64,000 nucleotides of DNA from an uncultured Candidatus Saccharibacteria bacterium (GTDB lineage: Bacteria > Patescibacteriota > Minisyncoccia > Phycocordibacterales > CAIZLB01). Below the pieces are notes generated by a model, which saw only the letters and a program-made list of their open reading frames with translations, was not told the DNA's origin and made no database searches. Shown in pieces: positions 671 to 31,495 of this stretch. Where the stretch lies: NCBI GenBank assembly GCA_964368945.1, contig CAYJDM010000005.1, positions 22,699 through 86,698 of the forward strand. The letters run 5' to 3'. How positions within the stretch are numbered: the stretch's first letter is position 1; every line of letters starts with the position of its first letter. The position numbers were made by a program, and so were the translations under genes.

Positions 671-2587
671 ATGAAAAAAGCACTCACAATAAGCATAGCT
701 CAGACGCTCTTCACCATCGAAGAAGACGCATATGCAAAACTTGATCATTATTTAACCTCGATACGATCTCATTTCGCCCATACAGAAGGACATGCGGATA
801 TCCTCAGCGATATCGAGGCGCGAATCAGCGAGAAATTCACCGAATCCAAGAAGCGGATAATCACGCTCGAGGAAGTCGAGGCGGTCATTGCATCGATGGG
901 ACGAGTAGAGGATTTTGGCGATGCAGAAGATGCCGCGCATGCGCATAGAAGCCATGAAGGCAACCATGCAAATCATGATTCAAACAATGCTGCACAAGGA
1001 GATGCGGCGGCCGGAGATTTTTCTACAGAAAAGAAAAAGAAGCTCTATCGAAATCCTGATGACAAGATCCTTGCAGGAGTGGCATCTGGACTGGGAATTT
1101 ATTTCGGAGTCGATGCATTGTGGATGCGGCTCGGATTCGTTTTGCTGACGATATTCACCAATGGATTCGGAATTCTGCTCTATATAGTATTGGCGCTCAT
1201 TATGCCCGAAGCCAAGACATCCGCGCAGAAGCTCGAGATGGAAGGCAGCCCAGTAACGCTCGAGACGATGAGCGAAAACATACGCGATAATTTCAAAAAA
1301 AAAGTAAAGCCAAAGATGGACGAGCTGAAGGTAAGGCATGGAAATAGCATTACCCGCCTGCTCGCCCTTCCGTTCAAGATCCTCAAGAAAGTTTTTGACA
1401 TCCTCGTGCGAACGGTTTTCCCTCTTATCAGAATCCTGATCGGCGCTTTTATCGCCGTCATATCGCTTGGCGGAATCCTTTTCTTCTCATTCATGGCGCC
1501 GCTCATTCTCACGAATAGCACGGCATACTTCGACTTCCCTCTCATGACAATAGTCTCCGGCCCGCTTATGTATCTCGCGGTGATCGGAATCTATCTCGCC
1601 ATCGTCATTCCTTTGGTTATCATATTCATGCTTGCCATCGGTCTTATCAGGAGAAAAAACATCCTCAGCCTCAAGGTAGGACTGACTCTCCTGGCGATAT
1701 GGTTCGTCGCGACAATATGCGGAGGCGTTGCGGGATTCAATGGCGCGCAGAAGGTCGAGGCATATGCCGATACGAATCCGCTCTATGATAAAACTACCCG
1801 CGACTTCGCCATCAGATCAGATCTCATCAAGAATCTCGAAGTTCAGAGCGGCATCAAGCTCAACCTCGTCCAGATTGCCAAAGATGGCGACACTGCAGCG
1901 AATAGCGGAGGCGTGGGCACTAGCGCGGGCAGCACTACGGAGCCCAGACTCCAAGCAACAGGCCGAACTCGAATCATCGACGATCTCGTAGTACGACAGG
2001 ATGGCGACACCCTGCATATAGAGCTGCTGTCTTCCGCTCGAAATAATTTCTGCTTCTTCTGCAATCTCGATGGCATTGAAGCGACTTTGTATCTGCCTGC
2101 GCTCGACAGCATTACGGCAAAGCATGGCGCGGATATCTCTGTCGATTCGTGGAAAAGCCCCGCCCCATTCAGCATCACTTTGGAAAATGGCGGGCATGGC
2201 GAGATCGACGACCTCATAGCACCAGAGCTTCGCATCAATGTCATCCATGGATCTGAACTCGAATTGAATGCGGACACTTCGACTTCCACGATCGAGATCG
2301 AGAATGGCGCGCGACTCGATATGACCGGAACAAGCACGGCCGTATCGGCCAACGTCAAGCATGGCAGCCGCGTTGATTTCACCGATATGCTCATCAACAG
2401 CGCCAGCGCGATGGCAGAAAACGGCTCCCGCATCATATTCGGCAGTCTCAAGGATCTCAATGCGAATGCCAAGCATGGATCGAGGATCGAATATTCTGGA
2501 TCGCCAAAGGTGATTGAAAAAACATCGAATGGCTCGGTTGTGAAGAATACCAGCGACGATTCCGATTCGGACGAGATCGATTATTAA
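671..2587 (+). CDS. Membrane stress-sensor-like protein: N-terminal DUF1700-like helix, PspC domain, multi-TM region, C-terminal DUF4097 (putative adhesin / toast-rack) repeats
   Basis: PspC domain motif KLYRNPDDKILAGVASGLGIYFGVDALWMRLGFVLL..YIVLALIMPE. Several hydrophobic helices follow. The C-terminus has repeated beta-strand DUF4097-like units (HGSRVDF, HGSRIEY). The gene sits right after PadR, which is the classic arrangement. Confidence 0.75.
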   Translation: MKKALTISIAQTLFTIEEDAYAKLDHYLTSIRSHFAHTEGHADILSDIEARISEKFTESKKRIITLEEVEAVIASMGRVEDFGDAEDAAHAHRSHEGNHANHDSNNAAQGDAAAGDFSTEKKKKLYRNPDDKILAGVASGLGIYFGVDALWMRLGFVLLTIFTNGFGILLYIVLALIMPEAKTSAQKLEMEGSPVTLETMSENIRDNFKKKVKPKMDELKVRHGNSITRLLALPFKILKKVFDILVRTVFPLIRILIGAFIAVISLGGILFFSFMAPLILTNSTAYFDFPLMTIVSGPLMYLAVIGIYLAIVIPLVIIFMLAIGLIRRKNILSLKVGLTLLAIWFVATICGGVAGFNGAQKVEAYADTNPLYDKTTRDFAIRSDLIKNLEVQSGIKLNLVQIAKDGDTAANSGGVGTSAGSTTEPRLQATGRTRIIDDLVVRQDGDTLHIELLSSARNNFCFFCNLDGIEATLYLPALDSITAKHGADISVDSWKSPAPFSITLENGGHGEIDDLIAPELRINVIHGSELELNADTSTSTIEIENGARLDMTGTSTAVSANVKHGSRVDFTDMLINSASAMAENGSRIIFGSLKDLNANAKHGSRIEYSGSPKVIEKTSNGSVVKNTSDDSDSDEIDY

Positions 2588-2626
2588 AAATCGTACGCAG
2601 AGTAAAACGCAGATTATGTAGAATAG

Positions 2627-2661
2627 AAAAGCCCCTGGCGAACGAGTCGTTAGGGGCTTTT
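2627..2661. terminator. Intrinsic terminator hairpin between convergent genes
   Basis: Stem AAAAGCCCCT / AGGGGCTTTT with a 15-nt loop, followed by a U-rich tract. It lies between the stop of the + gene (2587) and the stop of the - gene (2698). Confidence 0.55.
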
Positions 2662-2697
2662 CGGATTTTCAATTCAGTTGCGCGGCGCGCTGCACGA

Positions 2698-3075
2698 TTA
2701 CGGCTTGTCCAGGATCCAGGCCGGAAGGACAAAAACTACGGTATCATCGCCGATCGAGGCCTCTCGCACTTCCCATCCAGGATGCACATTCTTCGAGGGT
2801 GCTTCAGGCGGATCATACACCATGCCGGAATGTCTCACGCAGTGAGCAGCGACACCATCGGCATCGCAGGCGAGAATCGCGCGTTCAGGCTTGAATTTAG
2901 AATGTCGGAAATCATCAGGGAAAAAAGCCAGGCAAGTTCGCGTATGGCCGGTAACCACATGTATTCCATCGAAATGCGTATCGGCTACGCTCGAGACGAG
3001 TCCTGCCAAGCCGTCTTTTCTTCTGGCGACGCCCCAAAGGAGGCTTTTTTCGGTGAGCAATTTTAGTAGGTCCAT
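2698..3075 (-). CDS. Hypothetical protein (125 aa), no confidently recognised domain
   Basis: Clean ORF bounded by terminator-like hairpins on both sides. Sequence MDLLKLLTEKSLLWGVARRKDG...HVVTGHTRT. Function unknown. Confidence 0.45.
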   Translation of the reverse strand: MDLLKLLTEKSLLWGVARRKDGLAGLVSSVADTHFDGIHVVTGHTRTCLAFFPDDFRHSKFKPERAILACDADGVAAHCVRHSGMVYDPPEAPSKNVHPGWEVREASIGDDTVVFVLPAWILDKP

Positions 3076-3192
3076 AAGTCAGTGAGTCTAGATTGTGTTG
3101 GATTTGGTGAATGCTGCACAGAGGATGACATGGAATGAAAATCCGAGTGTACGAAGCTGTCGGAAATCATTACATTCATATTGCAATAAGTC

Positions 3193-3219
3193 AAATGGCG
3201 CGCCTTAAGGCGCGCCATT
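3193..3219. terminator. Perfect 26-nt palindrome (AATGGCGCGCC TTAA GGCGCGCCATT) followed by a T-run
   Basis: Perfect palindrome seen directly, followed by CAAGCGGTTTTTTTG. It lies between two minus-strand genes. Confidence 0.5.
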
Positions 3220-3246
3220 CAAGCGGTTTTTTTGCTTTAATTCCGA

Positions 3247-3753
3247 CTAGGCAAGCGTGATTTTCTCGATCACGATGGGATTCATAGGCCTATCATTCGG
3301 ACCCGTCGGAGACATGCCGATCGCCTCGACGATATCCATGCCCGCAGTCACATGGCCGAAGACAGTATGTTTTCCATCAAGAAAAGCATTGTCCTGAAGG
3401 TTGATGAAGAACTGGCTGCCATTCGTATTCGGTCCGGCATTGGCCATGGAGATAGTGCCGGGCGCATTCCGGTTATTTGCATTCGTGCCTCCGATCTCAT
3501 CAGCGAATTTGTAGCCCGGGCCACCCGTTCCCCAATATGCCGCCTGAGAATCGTCCTTCGTAAGCGGATCACCGCCCTGGATCATGAAGCCTGCAATGAT
3601 GCGGTGAAATTTTACCCCATCATAGAATCCCTCCCCTGCGAGCTTTGCGAAATTCGCAACGGTATTGGGAGTCTGCTCATTATGGAATGCGATCGTGATA
3701 TCGCCCTTATTCGTATGGAGGACCGCACTTGATGGTGTGTTTTGCATTTGCAC
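3247..3753 (-). CDS. ppiB: Peptidyl-prolyl cis-trans isomerase, cyclophilin type
   Basis: Canonical cyclophilin motifs: FHRIIAGFMIQGGDP, GTGGPGYKFADE, SMANAGPNTNGSQFFI, HTVFG. Confidence 0.9.
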   Translation of the reverse strand: MQMQNTPSSAVLHTNKGDITIAFHNEQTPNTVANFAKLAGEGFYDGVKFHRIIAGFMIQGGDPLTKDDSQAAYWGTGGPGYKFADEIGGTNANNRNAPGTISMANAGPNTNGSQFFINLQDNAFLDGKHTVFGHVTAGMDIVEAIGMSPTGPNDRPMNPIVIEKITLA

Positions 3754-7145: not shown

Positions 7146-7157
7146 GCCTCAAGTATA

Positions 7158-26510: not shown

Positions 26511-26661
26511 ACTTAAATTTTATCTCTTATTTGCTGGGAGAGAAGGAATCGGACCTTCATTGAGAGCTTCAAAGGCTCCTGTCCTACCATTAGACGATCT
26601 CCCAATAGATTTGTCAATACCCACTCAATCGAGGGGAATATACGACATATCGCCCACTACT

Positions 26662-27687
26662 TTATACAAAAAACTTGAAAAGCGCCAGCTCAATCGGCAT
26701 CACCGAAACGAAAGTCTTGCCCACCTGCTCCCGATGTGTCAGCAATAATTCGAGCATGCGCATGGCATCTCCGACCTGCTTCTTGCTTTTGACGATTCCC
26801 GCCTCGCTGAGCAGGAATGCGCGCAGCTCAGACATGACGAGATCCGCGAAGATCTTCACATCCATATCCGATTCATGGATTTTTTTCAAAATAGAAATTC
26901 CTGCAGCGAGACCCGTCGCATCCGCAGAGACATCCTCACTCCCCGCTCGTGCGCCAAGAACAGCATCCACAAAGCTCGCAACCAAAAGATGCGGCGGCAC
27001 TGAGATTATTTTCTCAACTTCTTCGAGAGAAACTTTCGCAGAATCCTTTCCGCCTGCCTTGGCCATTCCCACGACAGACTGCAGCGTCGACAAGGTATCT
27101 CTATACGAGCCATTTCCGACCATGGCGATTACCTCGGCGGCTTTTTCATCCATTTCTACGCCCTCCTTGCGCGCCACATTCACGACATGATTCTTGAGCG
27201 TCTCAACAGTGGGCTTGGCAAAATGGAATAACTGGCAGCGCGAGATGATGGTCTCAGGAATCTTATGAAGCTCCGTCGTAGCGAGAATGAAAATCACATG
27301 CTTCGGCGGCTCCTCAAGCGTTTTCAAAAAAGCATTGAAAGCGGATTTCGAAAGCATATGGACCTCGTCCAATATATAGACCTTGAATTTCGAATTCAGC
27401 GGCAAAGTATATACCGCCTCATTCAGCGTTCGGATATCCTCCACGCTGGTATTCGATGCCGCATCGATTTCATAAATATCCTCAGGCGCTGTCCCGATAT
27501 TCTGCGCAAATATTCTGGCTATCGTCGTCTTGCCCGTTCCTCTCGATCCCGCGAAAAGATATGCATGCGATGGCTGTGCGGCTGATTCCACCTTCTTTAC
27601 TTCTGCTTCGAGGATATTGACGATATGGCTCTGACCGACGACTTCGCTGAATTGCGCCGGACGATATTTGCGGTATAGGGATGACAT
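26662..27687 (-). CDS. dnaX: DNA polymerase III subunit gamma/tau (short form, lacks the Zn module)
   Basis: YRKYRPAQFSEVVGQ, Walker A GSRGTGKTTIAR, FKVYILDEVHML, SRC sensor. Confidence 0.8.
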   Translation of the reverse strand: MSSLYRKYRPAQFSEVVGQSHIVNILEAEVKKVESAAQPSHAYLFAGSRGTGKTTIARIFAQNIGTAPEDIYEIDAASNTSVEDIRTLNEAVYTLPLNSKFKVYILDEVHMLSKSAFNAFLKTLEEPPKHVIFILATTELHKIPETIISRCQLFHFAKPTVETLKNHVVNVARKEGVEMDEKAAEVIAMVGNGSYRDTLSTLQSVVGMAKAGGKDSAKVSLEEVEKIISVPPHLLVASFVDAVLGARAGSEDVSADATGLAAGISILKKIHESDMDVKIFADLVMSELRAFLLSEAGIVKSKKQVGDAMRMLELLLTHREQVGKTFVSVMPIELALFKFFV

Positions 27688-27730
27688 GAGGATCAGTATA
27701 GCATTTGATGTTTTTTATGGAAAAAAACAC

Positions 27731-27760
27731 GCCGGCCCTTTCGGGCGCGGCATGCATTAT
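27731..27760 (-). terminator. Intrinsic terminator at the downstream end of the island (before dnaX)
   Basis: GC-rich stem GCCGGCCC tttc GGGCGCGGC with one bulge. Followed on the minus strand by a U-run. Confidence 0.5.
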
Positions 27761-27792: not shown

Positions 27793-28287
27793 TCAGCAGC
27801 ATTCGCATGGAACCAAATGACATTTGGTGCAACGGGGCTTCTTGCGTGGGCGAAGCTCATCGTTCGGAATCATGGCGTCTCGTGCCGCATTCAGGAACTC
27901 GGCGACTGTCATGCCGCCTTCCATGGATGCATCTTCCTCCAGATCATCTAGACAGGCAAACACGGTTCGCCAGCCTCCCTTGTCGAGCCTCACGGCCCGA
28001 AATCCCGGCAGGCAGATCATCTGCCAGTAATCTCCGAGGTCAGTGGATGCCTCGGCCTGAATCGGCTTGAAAGCATGAGCATAGATCAGACAATGATCCC
28101 GCACCGTTGACGATCCGCCCAAGATCCGAAAGAGGCCTGCGGCCAGTTCCTTTATCGTGTCTTCAGGCTTGAATAATCGCGCGATACGCGGATGGATTTC
28201 GCCTATCAATTCCCGATCTGTCAGGAAAGCGGCTTCTGCGACTGGTGTTGGTGTTGGCATGGTTCGAGTATCGCCCTCGCCCATCAT
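27793..28287 (-). CDS. Island gene C: hypothetical protein with C-terminal CxxCx4CxCC zinc-knuckle-like motif; paralog of gene B
   Basis: ORF with ATG-ATG start. C-terminus PRCTKCHLVPCECC. Shares the GW..FAC block (RLDKGGWRTVFAC) with gene B (RIKNSGWMQLFAC). Confidence 0.5.
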   Translation of the reverse strand: MMGEGDTRTMPTPTPVAEAAFLTDRELIGEIHPRIARLFKPEDTIKELAAGLFRILGGSSTVRDHCLIYAHAFKPIQAEASTDLGDYWQMICLPGFRAVRLDKGGWRTVFACLDDLEEDASMEGGMTVAEFLNAARDAMIPNDELRPRKKPRCTKCHLVPCECC

Positions 28288-28373
28288 GGACAAGAACTTG
28301 TTTTGGCGATATGCGGATCAGCGATTCGCTGCCATATGCGCAGCACGAATCCCTATCCCGCATATCGCCAAAA
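28266..28373. repeat. Regulatory repeat element copy 1: half-site TATCGCCCT, then inverted repeat TTTTGGCGATATGCGG ... CCGCATATCGCCAAAA (41-nt spacer containing the palindrome CAGCGA-T-TCGCTG)
   Basis: Seen directly. 16-bp perfect inverted repeat at 28301-28316 / 28358-28373, plus an upstream degenerate half-site at 28267-28277. Confidence 0.6.
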
Positions 28374-28447
28374 CCAAGCCGGATCAAAGGGCTATTGTTC
28401 TAAAGACACAATACACCATCGCTGCAAGCCGAGTCAAAAAATGCGCG

Positions 28448-28480
28448 CCGTCCCCACTCGGGGATCGGCGCGCATACTGC
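28448..28480 (-). terminator. Intrinsic terminator after island gene B
   Basis: GCGCGCCGTCCCC actc GGGGA(T)CGGCGCGC, a 13-bp stem with one bulge. Followed on the minus strand by a U-run. Confidence 0.55.
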
Positions 28481-28502
28481 GCATGCTTGCGAACGGCCAT
28501 CT

Positions 28503-28934
28503 TCAGGCCATGGCTTCCTCGACTTGCTTAGGAGCGAATTGAGGAAACGCCCCATAGATATCGCTGAGCGCGATCGTCTCATTCGATCCCCATGAATTCG
28601 TGATATTCCGATTTCTACATGCAAACAGCTGCATCCAGCCGCTATTTTTGATGCGGCGCATGTCCTCAATGGCGACGGGCATCCCGATGAGACCCCGTCG
28701 GATCGTTGAGGCGCTTGCGCCCTTGTTCGGAACATACAGTTCGTTGAAATACACCTTGACCGAAATCAGATCGCCGCCGTCATTCCTCATCACTGCCATG
28801 ACCAGCCCATCAGCAATCCGCTCCAGCGAGGAATTATGGCTTTTTGCAGCCGACGGAAGCACCAGATCCTTCATGATCGCGGCAATAATTTCAAGTGAGA
28901 CTCCGAGAGAGCTGAGTATTTCTTCTTTGTTCAT
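28503..28934 (-). CDS. Island gene B: hypothetical protein, paralog of gene C (no Cys knuckle)
   Basis: Start at the ATG (MNKEEILSSLG). The longer ORF-track start at 29039 would read through the regulatory repeat. Conserved block MRRIKNSGWMQLFAC. Confidence 0.45.
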   Translation of the reverse strand: MNKEEILSSLGVSLEIIAAIMKDLVLPSAAKSHNSSLERIADGLVMAVMRNDGGDLISVKVYFNELYVPNKGASASTIRRGLIGMPVAIEDMRRIKNSGWMQLFACRNRNITNSWGSNETIALSDIYGAFPQFAPKQVEEAMA

Positions 28935-28938
28935 GCTT

Positions 28939-29055
28939 GGATATCGCCCTTTCCGGTCATGGAAAGAATTTTGATTGTTTTGGCGATATGCGAAGGCTCG
29001 GGCAAGGACAAGGGAAAAAGCAAGGGGCGCCAAGAGCATTCGGATATCGCCAAAA
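28939..29055. repeat. Regulatory repeat element copy 2: half-site GGATATCGCCCT, then inverted repeat TTTTGGCGATATGCG ... CGGATATCGCCAAAA (48-nt spacer)
   Basis: Seen directly. Same architecture and half-site sequence as copy 1, 673 bp away. Confidence 0.6.
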
Positions 29056-29195
29056 CGGCTGAGAGAGCGGAAGGCAATGCAAGTATCACAGAAAGATCAT
29101 TCGTGAAAACTATACAATAGGCGCAAAAACTATGCCACTGTGCAAAACCATCTCTGACGGGCAGCGAAAATCTCGGTCAGACAGACAAAAAAAGC

Positions 29196-29221
29196 GCCGT
29201 CCCTTTCGGGACGGCGCTCGA
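29196..29221 (-). terminator. Intrinsic terminator after island gene A
   Basis: GCGCCGTCCC tttc GGGACGGCGC, a perfect 10-bp stem. Followed on the minus strand by a U-run. Confidence 0.6.
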
Positions 29222-29237
29222 ATTTCGAGCTCATGCC

Positions 29238-30026
29238 TCAGCTCGCGGGCATCGATTCAACGGCCTCTACGCGCGGATGGTATTTTTCGAGTCCGAGTGC
29301 TACGAGCGTGCGACAAGCGCATGGCTTATTTCCGCAAGCCAGGCAGCCTTTTCCATAAAAATGGTCGACGGCTGTCGCAAGATCGATCTCGAGCATCGAG
29401 GAAATGGCGCAAATCCACGTGAATACATCCGCAAGCTCCTGAGCATAGCTATCGGCAATGTCATCCGACGTATTGAGCGGCTGCGTCGCATCGATCTCCA
29501 GCATCGCCACTTCGGACACTTCAGAAAAAAGCCGATTGAGCACGCCTTCGATTCCTGCCGCTTGATTATGCGCGCCATATCTTTGACGCAGCGTCTGCTG
29601 CCACATCGATATGCTCCATTCCAATTGCGCAGGATCGATCACGCTTTCGCATGGATTTTCCGATCGCGCCTCAGAGGCGCATGTGCATGGATCCGAGTTG
29701 CAGTACCCGCATTTGTTCGCAGGAAATTTCCGGCAGAGCGTCTCATTGAAGGGAAAGCCGGCATAGAATCCGTCGATGAAAGCCATCAGCCTCGAAAAGA
29801 GCGAAGCGCATGCCTTTCTCAAGACATGCCGATCTCGCTTCTTGCGAATGCAATCGTGAATATAGCGCACTGCCTTGAGCAGGAATGCGCCACGCTCGAG
29901 ACGGCTCCGCATGAGCAGGGAATTCTTCTTGCCGTATATTTCGGCGAAATGGGCCTGCCATGCATCGATTCCATACGTAGTTTTGTCTGTGGTTTCCGGT
30001 GTCGGTATCGCTGAAGAAGATTTCAT
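29238..30026 (-). CDS. Island gene A: tandem all-alpha MazG-like nucleotide pyrophosphohydrolase-like protein; each half ends in a CxxCx4CxC motif
   Basis: The second half aligns to small MazG/YpjD-type NTP-PPases (LFSEVSEVAMLEI; ELADVFTWICAISSMLEIDLATAVDHFYGK). The first half is a degenerate copy. Cys motifs are CGYCNSDPCTC and CLACGNKPCAC. Alternative TTG start at 30041. Confidence 0.55.
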   Translation of the reverse strand: MKSSSAIPTPETTDKTTYGIDAWQAHFAEIYGKKNSLLMRSRLERGAFLLKAVRYIHDCIRKKRDRHVLRKACASLFSRLMAFIDGFYAGFPFNETLCRKFPANKCGYCNSDPCTCASEARSENPCESVIDPAQLEWSISMWQQTLRQRYGAHNQAAGIEGVLNRLFSEVSEVAMLEIDATQPLNTSDDIADSYAQELADVFTWICAISSMLEIDLATAVDHFYGKGCLACGNKPCACRTLVALGLEKYHPRVEAVESMPAS

Positions 30027-30085
30027 TCGCGCTCCTTTCAATGCCTGTATGAGGCGGTTGGATGTTGAGGATGTGTAGTGAAGAA

Positions 30086-31285
30086 CTATTCCTTCAAGAT
30101 CACAGTACCATTAAAATGAGAATCTGTAAATGCCTCAATGATGCGTCGCACATCCGCAGCATTCTCTGCTTTTTCCATCAATTCCATGCGCAATTCCTTG
30201 GCGCCGTCGAATCCGTTTATATATGCCTTGAAGTGCTTTTTCATTATGGCGAAATTCTTGATCGCGCCGAGATGCTTTTCGAATAGCTCAGTGTGGCGGA
30301 TTGCCATCTGCAAACGCTCTTCGATTGTCGGATTATGCGCGGCTGCTGATGACCAGTCGGCATTTTCGCCGGCCTTCTGTTCGTCATTGCCTTTTTTAAT
30401 ATAAAAATTATTCAAACCGCTCCATAGCCAAGGATTGCCGAATAGCGCGCGCCCAAGCATGGCTCCATCGGCTCCCTGCTCCGCCGCTTTCTCCAAACCA
30501 TCTGGCACAGAAACGATATCTCCATTGCCCATGATGAGCGTGCGGTCGATAGGCGCGAGCTCAGCCTGAATCTGATCGCGGATCGCGACAGCTTCGCCGA
30601 CATGTTCCCATCTCGCAGGCACGAGCGACATTTCCTTGCGCGTTCGCGCATGAATAGTGATCGCGGCTGGATGCGCTTCGAGCAAAGCAGGCAGCCAAGT
30701 CGCCAATTCATTTTTGCCATAGCCGATTCGCGTTTTTACCGATACGGGAATCGGCACGCTTATGCCATCAAATGCATTGCGATCAGATGCGGGAGATTTT
30801 CCATCTTCAAAAGCGCGCTTCGCACCGGCCTGCGCAGCGCGAATGATTTCCTGCGCGCGCTTCGGATTCTTGATCATGCCCGCGCCAGCACCCTGCTTCT
30901 CGATTGATTTGTCAGGGCACCCCATATTGATATCAATGCCATCAAATCCGAGCGTCGCGACGAGATATGCTGCCTGCTCCATATATTCAGGATTCGATCC
31001 GAACAATTGCGCGACGATCGGATGCTCGGTCGGGCCGAACAAAAGATCCGCCATCAGCTTCGCCTTCCCTTCCGGAGTAGCGCGCACGATGCCGTCGGCA
31101 GAAACGAATTCCGTCCACATCATATCCGGATTGCCGCATTCGGCGATCAATGTTCGAAAAGCCACATCCGTAACATCCGCCATCGGCGCAAGGACGCTGA
31201 GCGGACGGCCAGGTCGAATAACCTCGCCAGTCGCGATGTCTTTGCCATCGATGATTTCAGTTTTTAGCTTTTGCCAGACATGCAT
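30086..31285 (-). CDS. dus: tRNA-dihydrouridine synthase (Dus family)
   Basis: SVLAPMADVTDVAFR, TIM-barrel FMN motifs, and the catalytic Cys region (GIDINMGCP). Start set at the internal ATG (MHVWQK). Confidence 0.8.
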   Translation of the reverse strand: MHVWQKLKTEIIDGKDIATGEVIRPGRPLSVLAPMADVTDVAFRTLIAECGNPDMMWTEFVSADGIVRATPEGKAKLMADLLFGPTEHPIVAQLFGSNPEYMEQAAYLVATLGFDGIDINMGCPDKSIEKQGAGAGMIKNPKRAQEIIRAAQAGAKRAFEDGKSPASDRNAFDGISVPIPVSVKTRIGYGKNELATWLPALLEAHPAAITIHARTRKEMSLVPARWEHVGEAVAIRDQIQAELAPIDRTLIMGNGDIVSVPDGLEKAAEQGADGAMLGRALFGNPWLWSGLNNFYIKKGNDEQKAGENADWSSAAAHNPTIEERLQMAIRHTELFEKHLGAIKNFAIMKKHFKAYINGFDGAKELRMELMEKAENAADVRRIIEAFTDSHFNGTVILKE

Positions 31286-31351
31286 ACTATATGTATAAAA
31301 CCCTCCGCCTTTTTCAATCACAATACCAAACGATCGCAGGATTGTATATAA

Positions 31352-31495
31352 AAAAATGTGACCCGTCCCCCACAGGGTGAGGACGGGTCGTGCTGGTCGA
31401 TGCATGGGGCTACGGATTTTCGCTCAGGCTTGATGCCGTCGCTAAGTCTATTCAATTCGCAGCCGGCCATGTCCTTTGGACATTGTCGGCAGCAC
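31352..31495 (-). ncRNA. Candidate ~140-nt small RNA or attenuator leader upstream of dus (promoter to terminator)
   Basis: Minus-strand near-consensus promoter TTGACT-16-TATAAT (plus-strand coordinates 31524-31529 / 31502-31507). It is followed ~110 nt later by hairpin GACCCGTCC...GGACGGGTC (31360-31389) plus a U7 tract. No ORF fits inside. Confidence 0.35.

Follow-up and report, generated by a model that had tools for sequence, protein, structure and literature searches.

A compact four-cysteine knuckle in a tandem MazG-type protein and at the C-terminus of a neighbouring orphan protein in a Saccharibacteria contig

The stretch of DNA analysed here, called the window throughout, is 64 kb of contig CAYJDM010000005.1 from an uncultured Candidatus Saccharibacteria bacterium; three consecutive minus-strand genes in it, A, B and C, lie between a dus-like and a dnaX-like gene. 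The motif C-x2-C-x3-P-C-x-C occurs twice in the product of gene A, a tandem MazG-type protein, and once at the C-terminus of the product of gene C. It is real and non-random, and not a compositional accident. It is probably a compact, self-contained Cys4 knuckle, most likely holding structural zinc, which would act as a family-wide cap in A and as a portable module on C; this reading draws on the conservation of the motif and on a structural model of A.

The knuckle and its conservation

A six-frame regular-expression scan of the whole window gave exactly three matches to the strict motif (C..C...PC.C), all on the minus strand, and the relaxed form C..C....C.C returned the same three and no extra ones. 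The first-pass annotation of this DNA had described three copies of identical spacing, two in gene A and one in gene C, and the scan bears this out; its gene coordinates, with A starting at the ATG at 30026 and C ending at 27793, match as well. Six-frame residue frequencies predict 0.005 occurrences of the strict motif and 0.09 of the loose one, and in 300 block shuffles of the window the mean was 0.003 and the maximum 1. The notion that such Cys-rich strings are scattered through the genome by compositional coincidence has next to no chance of being right, given three observed copies against that expectation with none elsewhere in the window, Cys residues unchanged across 151 relatives of A, and a homologue of gene C that keeps the motif. 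The features concerned are as follows, with residue numbers of A referring to its 267-amino-acid open reading frame (ORF).

29238-30026, minus strand: gene A, tandem MazG-like, 262 amino acids from the ATG at 30026 (gene callers)
29238-30041, minus strand: longer ORF of gene A, from an upstream TTG at 30041, 267 amino acids
29727-29969, minus strand: half 1 of A (residues ~25-105), a degenerate MazG-like helical unit
29679-29711, minus strand: knuckle 1 of A, CGYCNSDPCTC (C111, C114, C119, C121)
29355-29633, minus strand: half 2 of A (residues ~137-229), a MazG-type nucleoside triphosphate (NTP) pyrophosphohydrolase unit (E174, E177, E202, D205)
29313-29345, minus strand: knuckle 2 of A, CLACGNKPCAC (C233, C236, C241, C243)
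27799-27831, minus strand: knuckle 3, CTKCHLVPCEC, closing gene C except for one further Cys before the stop codon

Each ligand position of knuckle 1 is Cys in 151/151 aligned relatives of A. At knuckle 2, 139 of the 151 have Cys as first ligand and 7 have His, and no other replacement recurs. A swap confined to Cys and His at an otherwise invariant position is a classic mark of a metal ligand, not of a disulfide. Because the sole recurrent replacement is Cys to His, the knuckle reads as a metal site; judged from the alignment, its invariant ligands and Cys/His interchange are those of a generic Cys4 site, which would bind a single metal ion, most likely Zn(II). The family consensus is K-Y-P-x2-G-C-x-Y-C-x3-P-C-x-C for knuckle 1 and R-Y-G-x-G-C-P-x-C-x3-P-C-x-C for knuckle 2, and the extended consensus of both is (K/R)-(Y/F)-(P/G)-x2-3-C-x2-C-x3-P-C-x-C. 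The Pro is kept in 77% of knuckle-1 and 67% of knuckle-2 copies. The three residues between the second Cys and this Pro are K, R or H in 32-35% of cases against a background of 14.5%, and D or E in 5-6% against 12%; such a basic loop could contact nucleotide phosphates or a neighbouring subunit. In an AlphaFold2 model of gene A built on the family alignment (predicted local distance difference test, pLDDT, 89.2; predicted template modelling score, pTM, 0.85), two similar helical units are each followed by an irregular loop with four Cys. These loops are modelled at pLDDT 93-97 (about 95-97 in the knuckle-1 block) as neither helix nor strand, and DSSP finds no strands at residues 106-121 and 231-243.

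Known Cys-rich families offered no home for this unit. Pfam and NCBIfam gave no match for the knuckle peptides even at E<=10, PDB chains searched with a profile of 66 knuckle segments yielded isolated CxxC halves only, and in the literature we found no description of the knuckle or of a MazG with a zinc ribbon or cysteine tandem. The first-pass annotation had suggested a common zinc-ribbon module: a conserved Cys4 metal-type unit on unrelated proteins is indeed present, whereas the classical ribbon, with CxxC pairs about 10-30 residues apart on beta-hairpins, was rejected, since all Cys lie within 11 residues and strands are absent. The retroviral CCHC knuckle, C-x2-C-x4-H-x4-C, is likewise very short, binds a single metal and often has basic flanks. 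The spacing of its first three ligands is that of the knuckle described here, a resemblance and not a sign of membership; in the present knuckle only one residue separates the third ligand from the fourth (C-x-C), where CCHC has four, every ligand is Cys, and with no Pfam match to PF00098 the CCHC assignment was discarded. SEC-C (PF02810), a Zn-binding motif at the C-terminus of SecA and of numerous other proteins, resembles the tail of gene C in being a short, Cys-rich, basic C-terminal element with P-C-x-C on unrelated proteins. Its order and spacing, C-x-C-x8-C-[CH], differ from C-x2-C-x3-P-C-x-C, and it too was rejected, with no Pfam match for gene C, for the peptides (E<=10) or for the whole proteins (E<=1).

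A comparable arrangement was found in a wholly unrelated protein. A Defluviitaleaceae metagenome-assembled genome (MAG; WRLD01000010.1, L008) encodes a BspA-like leucine-rich repeat (LRR) protein of more than 2385 amino acids (ORF ending at 7157, minus strand) with 18 copies of C-x2-C-x2-Y-P-C-x-C, arranged in head-to-tail arrays of 3-6 between the LRR blocks. This is an undescribed Cys-rich repeat, spaced exactly like the knuckle and without a Pfam or NCBIfam match, and its presence in so unrelated a protein argues that the knuckle is a self-contained unit. The 11-residue knuckle is also a candidate new mini-domain for domain databases and, if it does bind metal, Cys mutants would be a simple handle on the family.

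The tandem MazG-type family

A word-indexed search of 5.8 billion proteins with gene A returned only gene A itself, and a word-index search with the family-A alignment returned almost nothing; the family emerged only by exhaustive phmmer comparison with 1.84 billion cluster representatives, which gave 469 relatives at E<=1e-3, 226 of them also at E<=1e-10. Its size is thus at least 469 clusters at 50% identity, a lower bound. Almost all of the matches are full-length and 235-255 amino acids long, and 127 of the 150 best relatives carry two C-x2-C-x4-C-x-C motifs at equivalent positions. We define the tandem family accordingly, as proteins of about 240 amino acids with two homologous halves each ending in C-x2-C-x4-C-x-C, an architecture that A has. 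Among 60 aligned family members with 25-50% identity to A, the columns without any variation are those of all eight Cys, Y155, E202 and W209, while E174, E177 and D205 are at least 90% conserved.

Gene A belongs to the MazG / all-alpha NTP pyrophosphohydrolase superfamily by sequence similarity, by its four-helix-bundle fold and by its Mg-binding acidic residues. The family-A profile matches the Sulfolobus enzyme SsMazG (1vmg) at E 2.7e-14 and, at E values from there to 1e-4, five further MazG-type structures, among them iMazG (2q5z), 5ie9, YpjD (2gta) and DCTPP1; the matches always cover half 2 only and end just before the knuckle. Of 60 family-A members, 8 match PF03819. When 1vmg is superposed on the gene A model with Foldseek, the fold it has in common with half 2 gives a template modelling (TM) score of 0.89 and a root mean square deviation (rmsd) of 1.4 A over 88 columns. 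A fold search of BFVD retrieved generic NTP pyrophosphatase folds only. The acidic signature E-x2-E...E-x2-D is kept only in half 2; half 1, modelled as helices at residues 25-43, 47-66, 71-90 and 98-105, has lost the catalytic acidic residues and reads A-L-A-R in consensus where half 2 has E-x-A-D. The two halves nevertheless match each other profile to profile (hhalign probability 99.4%, E 5e-21, 99 columns), knuckle included, so gene A is an internal duplication of a MazG helical unit together with its knuckle. The same match upholds the earlier observation that each MazG-like half closes with a knuckle.

MazG-type enzymes are well studied, and we found no solved or described member with a metal knuckle. 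The first-pass annotation did not recognise the knuckle as a standard MazG appendage, and it is in fact absent from every solved MazG that matches family A. SsMazG (SSO3215, 1vmg), iMazG (2q5z/2q73), YpjD (2gta) and DCTPP1/RS21-C6 are homologous to half 2 and have the acidic residues in common with it, but the chains of these single-domain enzymes end at or before the K-Y-P position and lack the Cys4 knuckle, of which A has two. These enzymes are moreover non-covalent dimers, whereas A would be a covalent fusion of a dead and a live unit. E. coli MazG (3cra) has two MazG-like units per polypeptide, as in A, and its units contribute unequally to catalysis; it matches A only weakly by Foldseek (probability 0.41, TM 0.24-0.29), shows no sequence-level match to half 1 of A, and lacks knuckles. 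PHROGs gave no match for family A, and the PADLOC defence-system models gave no more than noise for A (PtuB, E 0.011) and nothing for B or C.

To place the family in genomes, one genome per GTDB species was scanned with a degenerate DNA pattern for K-[YF]-P-x3-C-x-Y-C-x3-P-C-x-C, which 74 of 151 family-A members contain. Of the 38 loci returned, 36 encode a family-A protein by hidden Markov model (HMM); L013 was rejected as a chance match with stop codons, and the remaining one is the LRR-protein locus L008. The 36 family-A loci, of at most 8 kb each, come overwhelmingly from Patescibacteria MAGs (Saccharibacteria, Paceibacterota, Kaiserbacteria, Shapirobacteria, Levyibacteriota and Nomurabacteria), with a handful of MAGs from Gammaproteobacteria and Bdellovibrionales besides. 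Even the loose motif is missing from all other ORFs of 50 amino acids or more in the 36 loci, no homologue of B or C lies near these family-A genes, and the 36 loci hold no conserved operon partner. By Pfam annotation, the 54 immediate neighbours (L009-L045) are housekeeping genes, among which DNA-precursor and replication genes are recurrent: thymidylate kinase (Tmk, three times), ThyA, ThyX, a dCTP-deaminase-like (Dcd-like) protein, DnaE, GyrB and MgsA. DnaX lies close to A in the window, L004, L024 and L036. Tmk, ThyA/ThyX, Dcd and DnaE/DnaX point to a role in deoxynucleoside triphosphate (dNTP) and thymidylate supply, a weak spot in salvage-dependent organisms. The neighbours would fit a dNTP-pool pyrophosphatase and hint at a part for family A in supplying dUMP/dTTP or in sanitising the dNTPs of Patescibacteria.

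Viral contigs of IMG/VR gave no match to the degenerate pattern, which is of the candidate phyla radiation (CPR) type. By tblastn, relatives of A were found on 17 E. coli plasmid records and in a Vibrio filamentous phage, represented by two proteins.

1030-2022 of E. coli plasmid NZ_CP020936.1 (IncY, the one inspected of the 17): 330-amino-acid relative of A, WP_000944483.1, annotated as a MazG-like family protein
2521-3513 of Vibrio filamentous phage PQ189347.1: 330-amino-acid relative of A, XLL20512.1

WP_000944483.1 matches the family-A profile over both halves (hhalign probability 99.6%, E 8.6e-24), and both knuckles are present in it and in XLL20512.1 (KKFPSCCPYCLGAPCSC / YYLNGCPVCNKRECVC). 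The two are true relatives of A that differ from it in length, in an extra C-terminal helical tail of about 90 residues and in residing on mobile elements of Proteobacteria. Neither has an NCBIfam, PADLOC or other defence-system model match, and we found no literature description of WP_000944483 or of a MazG in the CPR context. Family A is a sizeable unnamed subfamily. Most of its members come from Patescibacteria, others from E. coli P1-like plasmids and a Vibrio filamentous phage, and its signature is a duplicated unit of MazG and Cys4 knuckle in which one half appears dead and the other live.

Gene A arose by duplication of a MazG four-helix unit with a knuckle placed immediately after the canonical MazG end. 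In the scheme we propose for it, half 2, with its Mg-binding E-x2-E...E-x2-D residues, would form the catalytic NTP/dNTP pyrophosphohydrolase site, and half 1 would be the dead partner in a fused pseudo-dimer; we infer the catalytic activity from the retained residues. Most likely the knuckles have a structural role and fasten each helical bundle at its C-terminal end.

Genes B and C and the meaning of the shared knuckle

The first-pass annotation had treated A, B and C as genes of one island. The setting of A is given by the genes around it.

30086-31405: dus-like gene, one flank of the A-B-C stretch
28503-28934, minus strand: gene B, 143 amino acids, an orphan without knuckle
27793-28284, minus strand: gene C, 163 amino acids, an orphan body with a basic linker, PRKKPR, and the C-terminal knuckle
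26662-27687: dnaX-like gene, the other flank

In GCA_013565675.1 (L004), a homologue of A with 50% identity lies directly between dus and dnaX, with a spacer of about 180 nucleotides and without B or C. As this relative is simply dus-A-dnaX, and as the family of at least 469 clusters is independent of C, A is not an island gene, and the view of A-B-C as a genomic island was rejected for A. Gene A is resident, whereas B and C are optional, fast-evolving orphans. The flanking proteins in L004 are 75-79% identical to those of the window and A only 50%, so A evolves faster than its neighbours, with all eight Cys kept.

Only one homologue of gene C turned up among 5.8 billion proteins: P0003, at 74% identity, encoded on a 1.8-kb contig (L003) of gene order B-C-dnaX. 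The B protein of that contig is the only known homologue of gene B (63% identical). For dnaX, the window and L003 agree at about 95% of DNA positions, as estimated by eye from the alignment, and the proteins are 100% identical across the 162 residues that L003 includes. The knuckle of P0003, CTMCHKEPCDC, keeps the four Cys and the Pro and differs at the variable positions; the linker diverges (IPNDELRPRKKPR in the window vs IQGGDGPPRKKSR in L003) with PRKK-R conserved, and the extra terminal Cys is not kept. Together with the eight invariant Cys of family A, this marks the motif as being under selection. No relatives of C were found in JGI metagenomes, and neither B nor C has a Pfam, NCBIfam, PADLOC or PHROG match. 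Against PDB, gene C gave weak, unrelated sequence matches only (best E 0.018), and an AlphaFold2 model from the 2-sequence alignment reached only pLDDT 41 and is not usable. Only the last 20 residues of C align to family A, at knuckle 2 (hhalign E 1.8e-4, probability 48%). Gene C as a third MazG unit was rejected as unsupported, since forced global hhalign against either half scores on the knuckle only; a reading of B and C as a toxin-antitoxin pair found no support either, as they are separate transcription units without family matches. In the scheme we favour, gene C is an unrelated, lineage-restricted, fast-evolving protein whose C-terminal tail, set behind a basic linker, consists of the knuckle mini-module. 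The shared knuckle does not by itself imply that A and C bind each other; its sharing is curious and rests at present on one lineage and two sequences.

Several observations weigh against our interpretation of the knuckle as a structural zinc module set on an active MazG enzyme and, separately, on C. Gene A alone matches Pfam MazG weakly, over residues 167-229 (14.5 bits vs a gathering threshold of 22 bits). AlphaFold places no metal, and confidence in a predicted loop falls short of proving a site. With four Cys in a span of 11 residues, the bound metal could also be Fe or Cu, or the group could work as a redox switch, and the arrays of the LRR protein probably lie outside the cell, where disulfides and zinc are equally likely. 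Within the 36 loci the motif is confined to the family-A genes, yet in the window it recurs in C, 1.4 kb from A, which makes pure coincidence unlikely and leaves room for a functional or evolutionary link between A and C, as yet unproven.

An evolutionary link of this kind is that the knuckle of C was copied from A or another family member by local partial duplication or recombination and persists as a tail that stabilises the protein but is functionally unconnected with A. We regard this as possible, if rather unlikely. It would fit the distance of only 1.4 kb, the duplicated look of the B and C cassettes (leader arms, leader peptide, terminators and weak B-C similarity, described below) and the alignment of the last 20 residues of C with knuckle 2 of A. 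Similarity between the knuckle DNAs is, however, limited to the P-C-x-C codons (13 nucleotides), the residues leading up to the first Cys are spaced differently (K-K-P-R-C in C vs K-F-P-x3-C in A), and 11 residues are too short to prove descent.

A functional link would make the knuckle a shared interaction or nucleic-acid-binding module through which C, with B, docks on A or competes for its partner or ligand, A, B and C forming one system; this seems unlikely to us. What speaks for it is that the motif, found nowhere else in the window or in other ORFs of the 36 loci, occurs in a cassette beside A, that a conserved basic linker (PRKK-R) precedes the knuckle of C while the knuckle loops of family A are basic, and that B and C evolve far faster than dnaX (63% and 74% vs 100% amino-acid identity), as would fit a conflict or regulatory role. 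Yet the A locus of L004 and all 36 other family-A loci are without B and C, A lacks the leader common to B and C and is transcribed separately from them, and neither B nor C has a detectable domain. Because the knuckles of A are kept in hundreds of lineages without C, co-occurrence gives an A-C complex no support.

The alternative in which the Cys bind an Fe-S cluster, Fe or Cu, or form a reversible thiol/disulfide switch that gates the enzyme by redox state, appears quite improbable. An invariant Cys4 set with occasional His also fits Fe or Fe-S ligation, and the probably extracellular arrays of the LRR protein suggest that disulfides could keep the unit stable. Since some organisms use MazG-type enzymes to sanitise oxidised nucleotides, a link to redox state is conceivable. 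A span of 11 residues with four ligands, a C-x-C among them, would nevertheless suit a mononuclear site better than a cubane, as inferred from ferredoxin and rubredoxin spacings; no Fe-S assembly genes were seen among the annotated neighbours, and Pfam and NCBIfam gave no Fe-S family match.

More speculatively, and in our view with very little likelihood, B and C could be diverged copies of one fast-evolving cassette with a shared structured leader, inserted beside A as a lineage-specific regulatory or conflict module. The knuckle of C would then be a portable docking mimic that binds A or competes for its partner or substrate and so tunes dNTP-pool sanitation in an ultra-small Patescibacteria genome.

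Leaders, terminators and cassette structure

Genes A, B and C are separate transcription units with their own terminators; B and C share a leader, and A is without one. The elements concerned are listed here.

29192-29219, minus strand: terminator-like hairpin and T-run after A, near-duplicated after C and partly after B
28977-29056, minus strand: inverted repeat in the leader of B, preceded by a promoter-like site at 29138-29109
28931-28960, minus strand: 9-codon upstream ORF (uORF), MTGKGDIQA-stop, upstream of B, its TGA overlapping the ATG of B (ATGA)
28300-28374, minus strand: leader inverted repeat upstream of C, with 29-nucleotide arms that are 86% complementary, downstream of a promoter-like site at 28437-28408

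A GC hairpin with a T-run lies 3' of each of the three genes. The hairpins are near-copies, at 27722-27745 (C), 28438-28454 (B) and 29187-29210 (A), those of A and C being 88% identical over 24 nucleotides, and such near-identical terminators are consistent with cassette duplication or with insertion next to the terminator of A. The 15-nucleotide leader arm TTTTGGCGATAT[C/G]CG has four perfect or near-perfect copies in the window, against 0.5 expected, and they are confined to the leaders of B and C. RNA folding of the leaders gives very stable hairpins, with z = -6.8 for C and -3.5 for B, the repeats are conserved in L003, and no Rfam family matches them; the pair may represent a new cis-regulatory leader or operator pair. 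Weak similarity, collinear and with R-x3-G-W-x3-F-A-C at its centre, links the proteins B and C (BLASTP E 0.005; hhalign E 0.006). Its score is reached by 11/2000 shuffles (p ~0.006), which is suggestive of diverged duplicates of one cassette but does not show it.

The peptide encoded by the uORF has a homologue, MGEGDTRT, fused in frame at the N-terminus of C (28258-28284, minus strand), downstream of the leader hairpin, and the DNA encoding it is 100% conserved in L003. This suggests either control of the leader-peptide type or a real start of C further downstream, at the ATG at 28260. The right leader arm has a possible alternative pairing partner in a third GGCGATA(T/C) copy, close to the start codon. 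Just downstream of dnaX, a tRNA-Gln(TTG) at 26533-26604 on the minus strand is the only RNA gene detected in the window.

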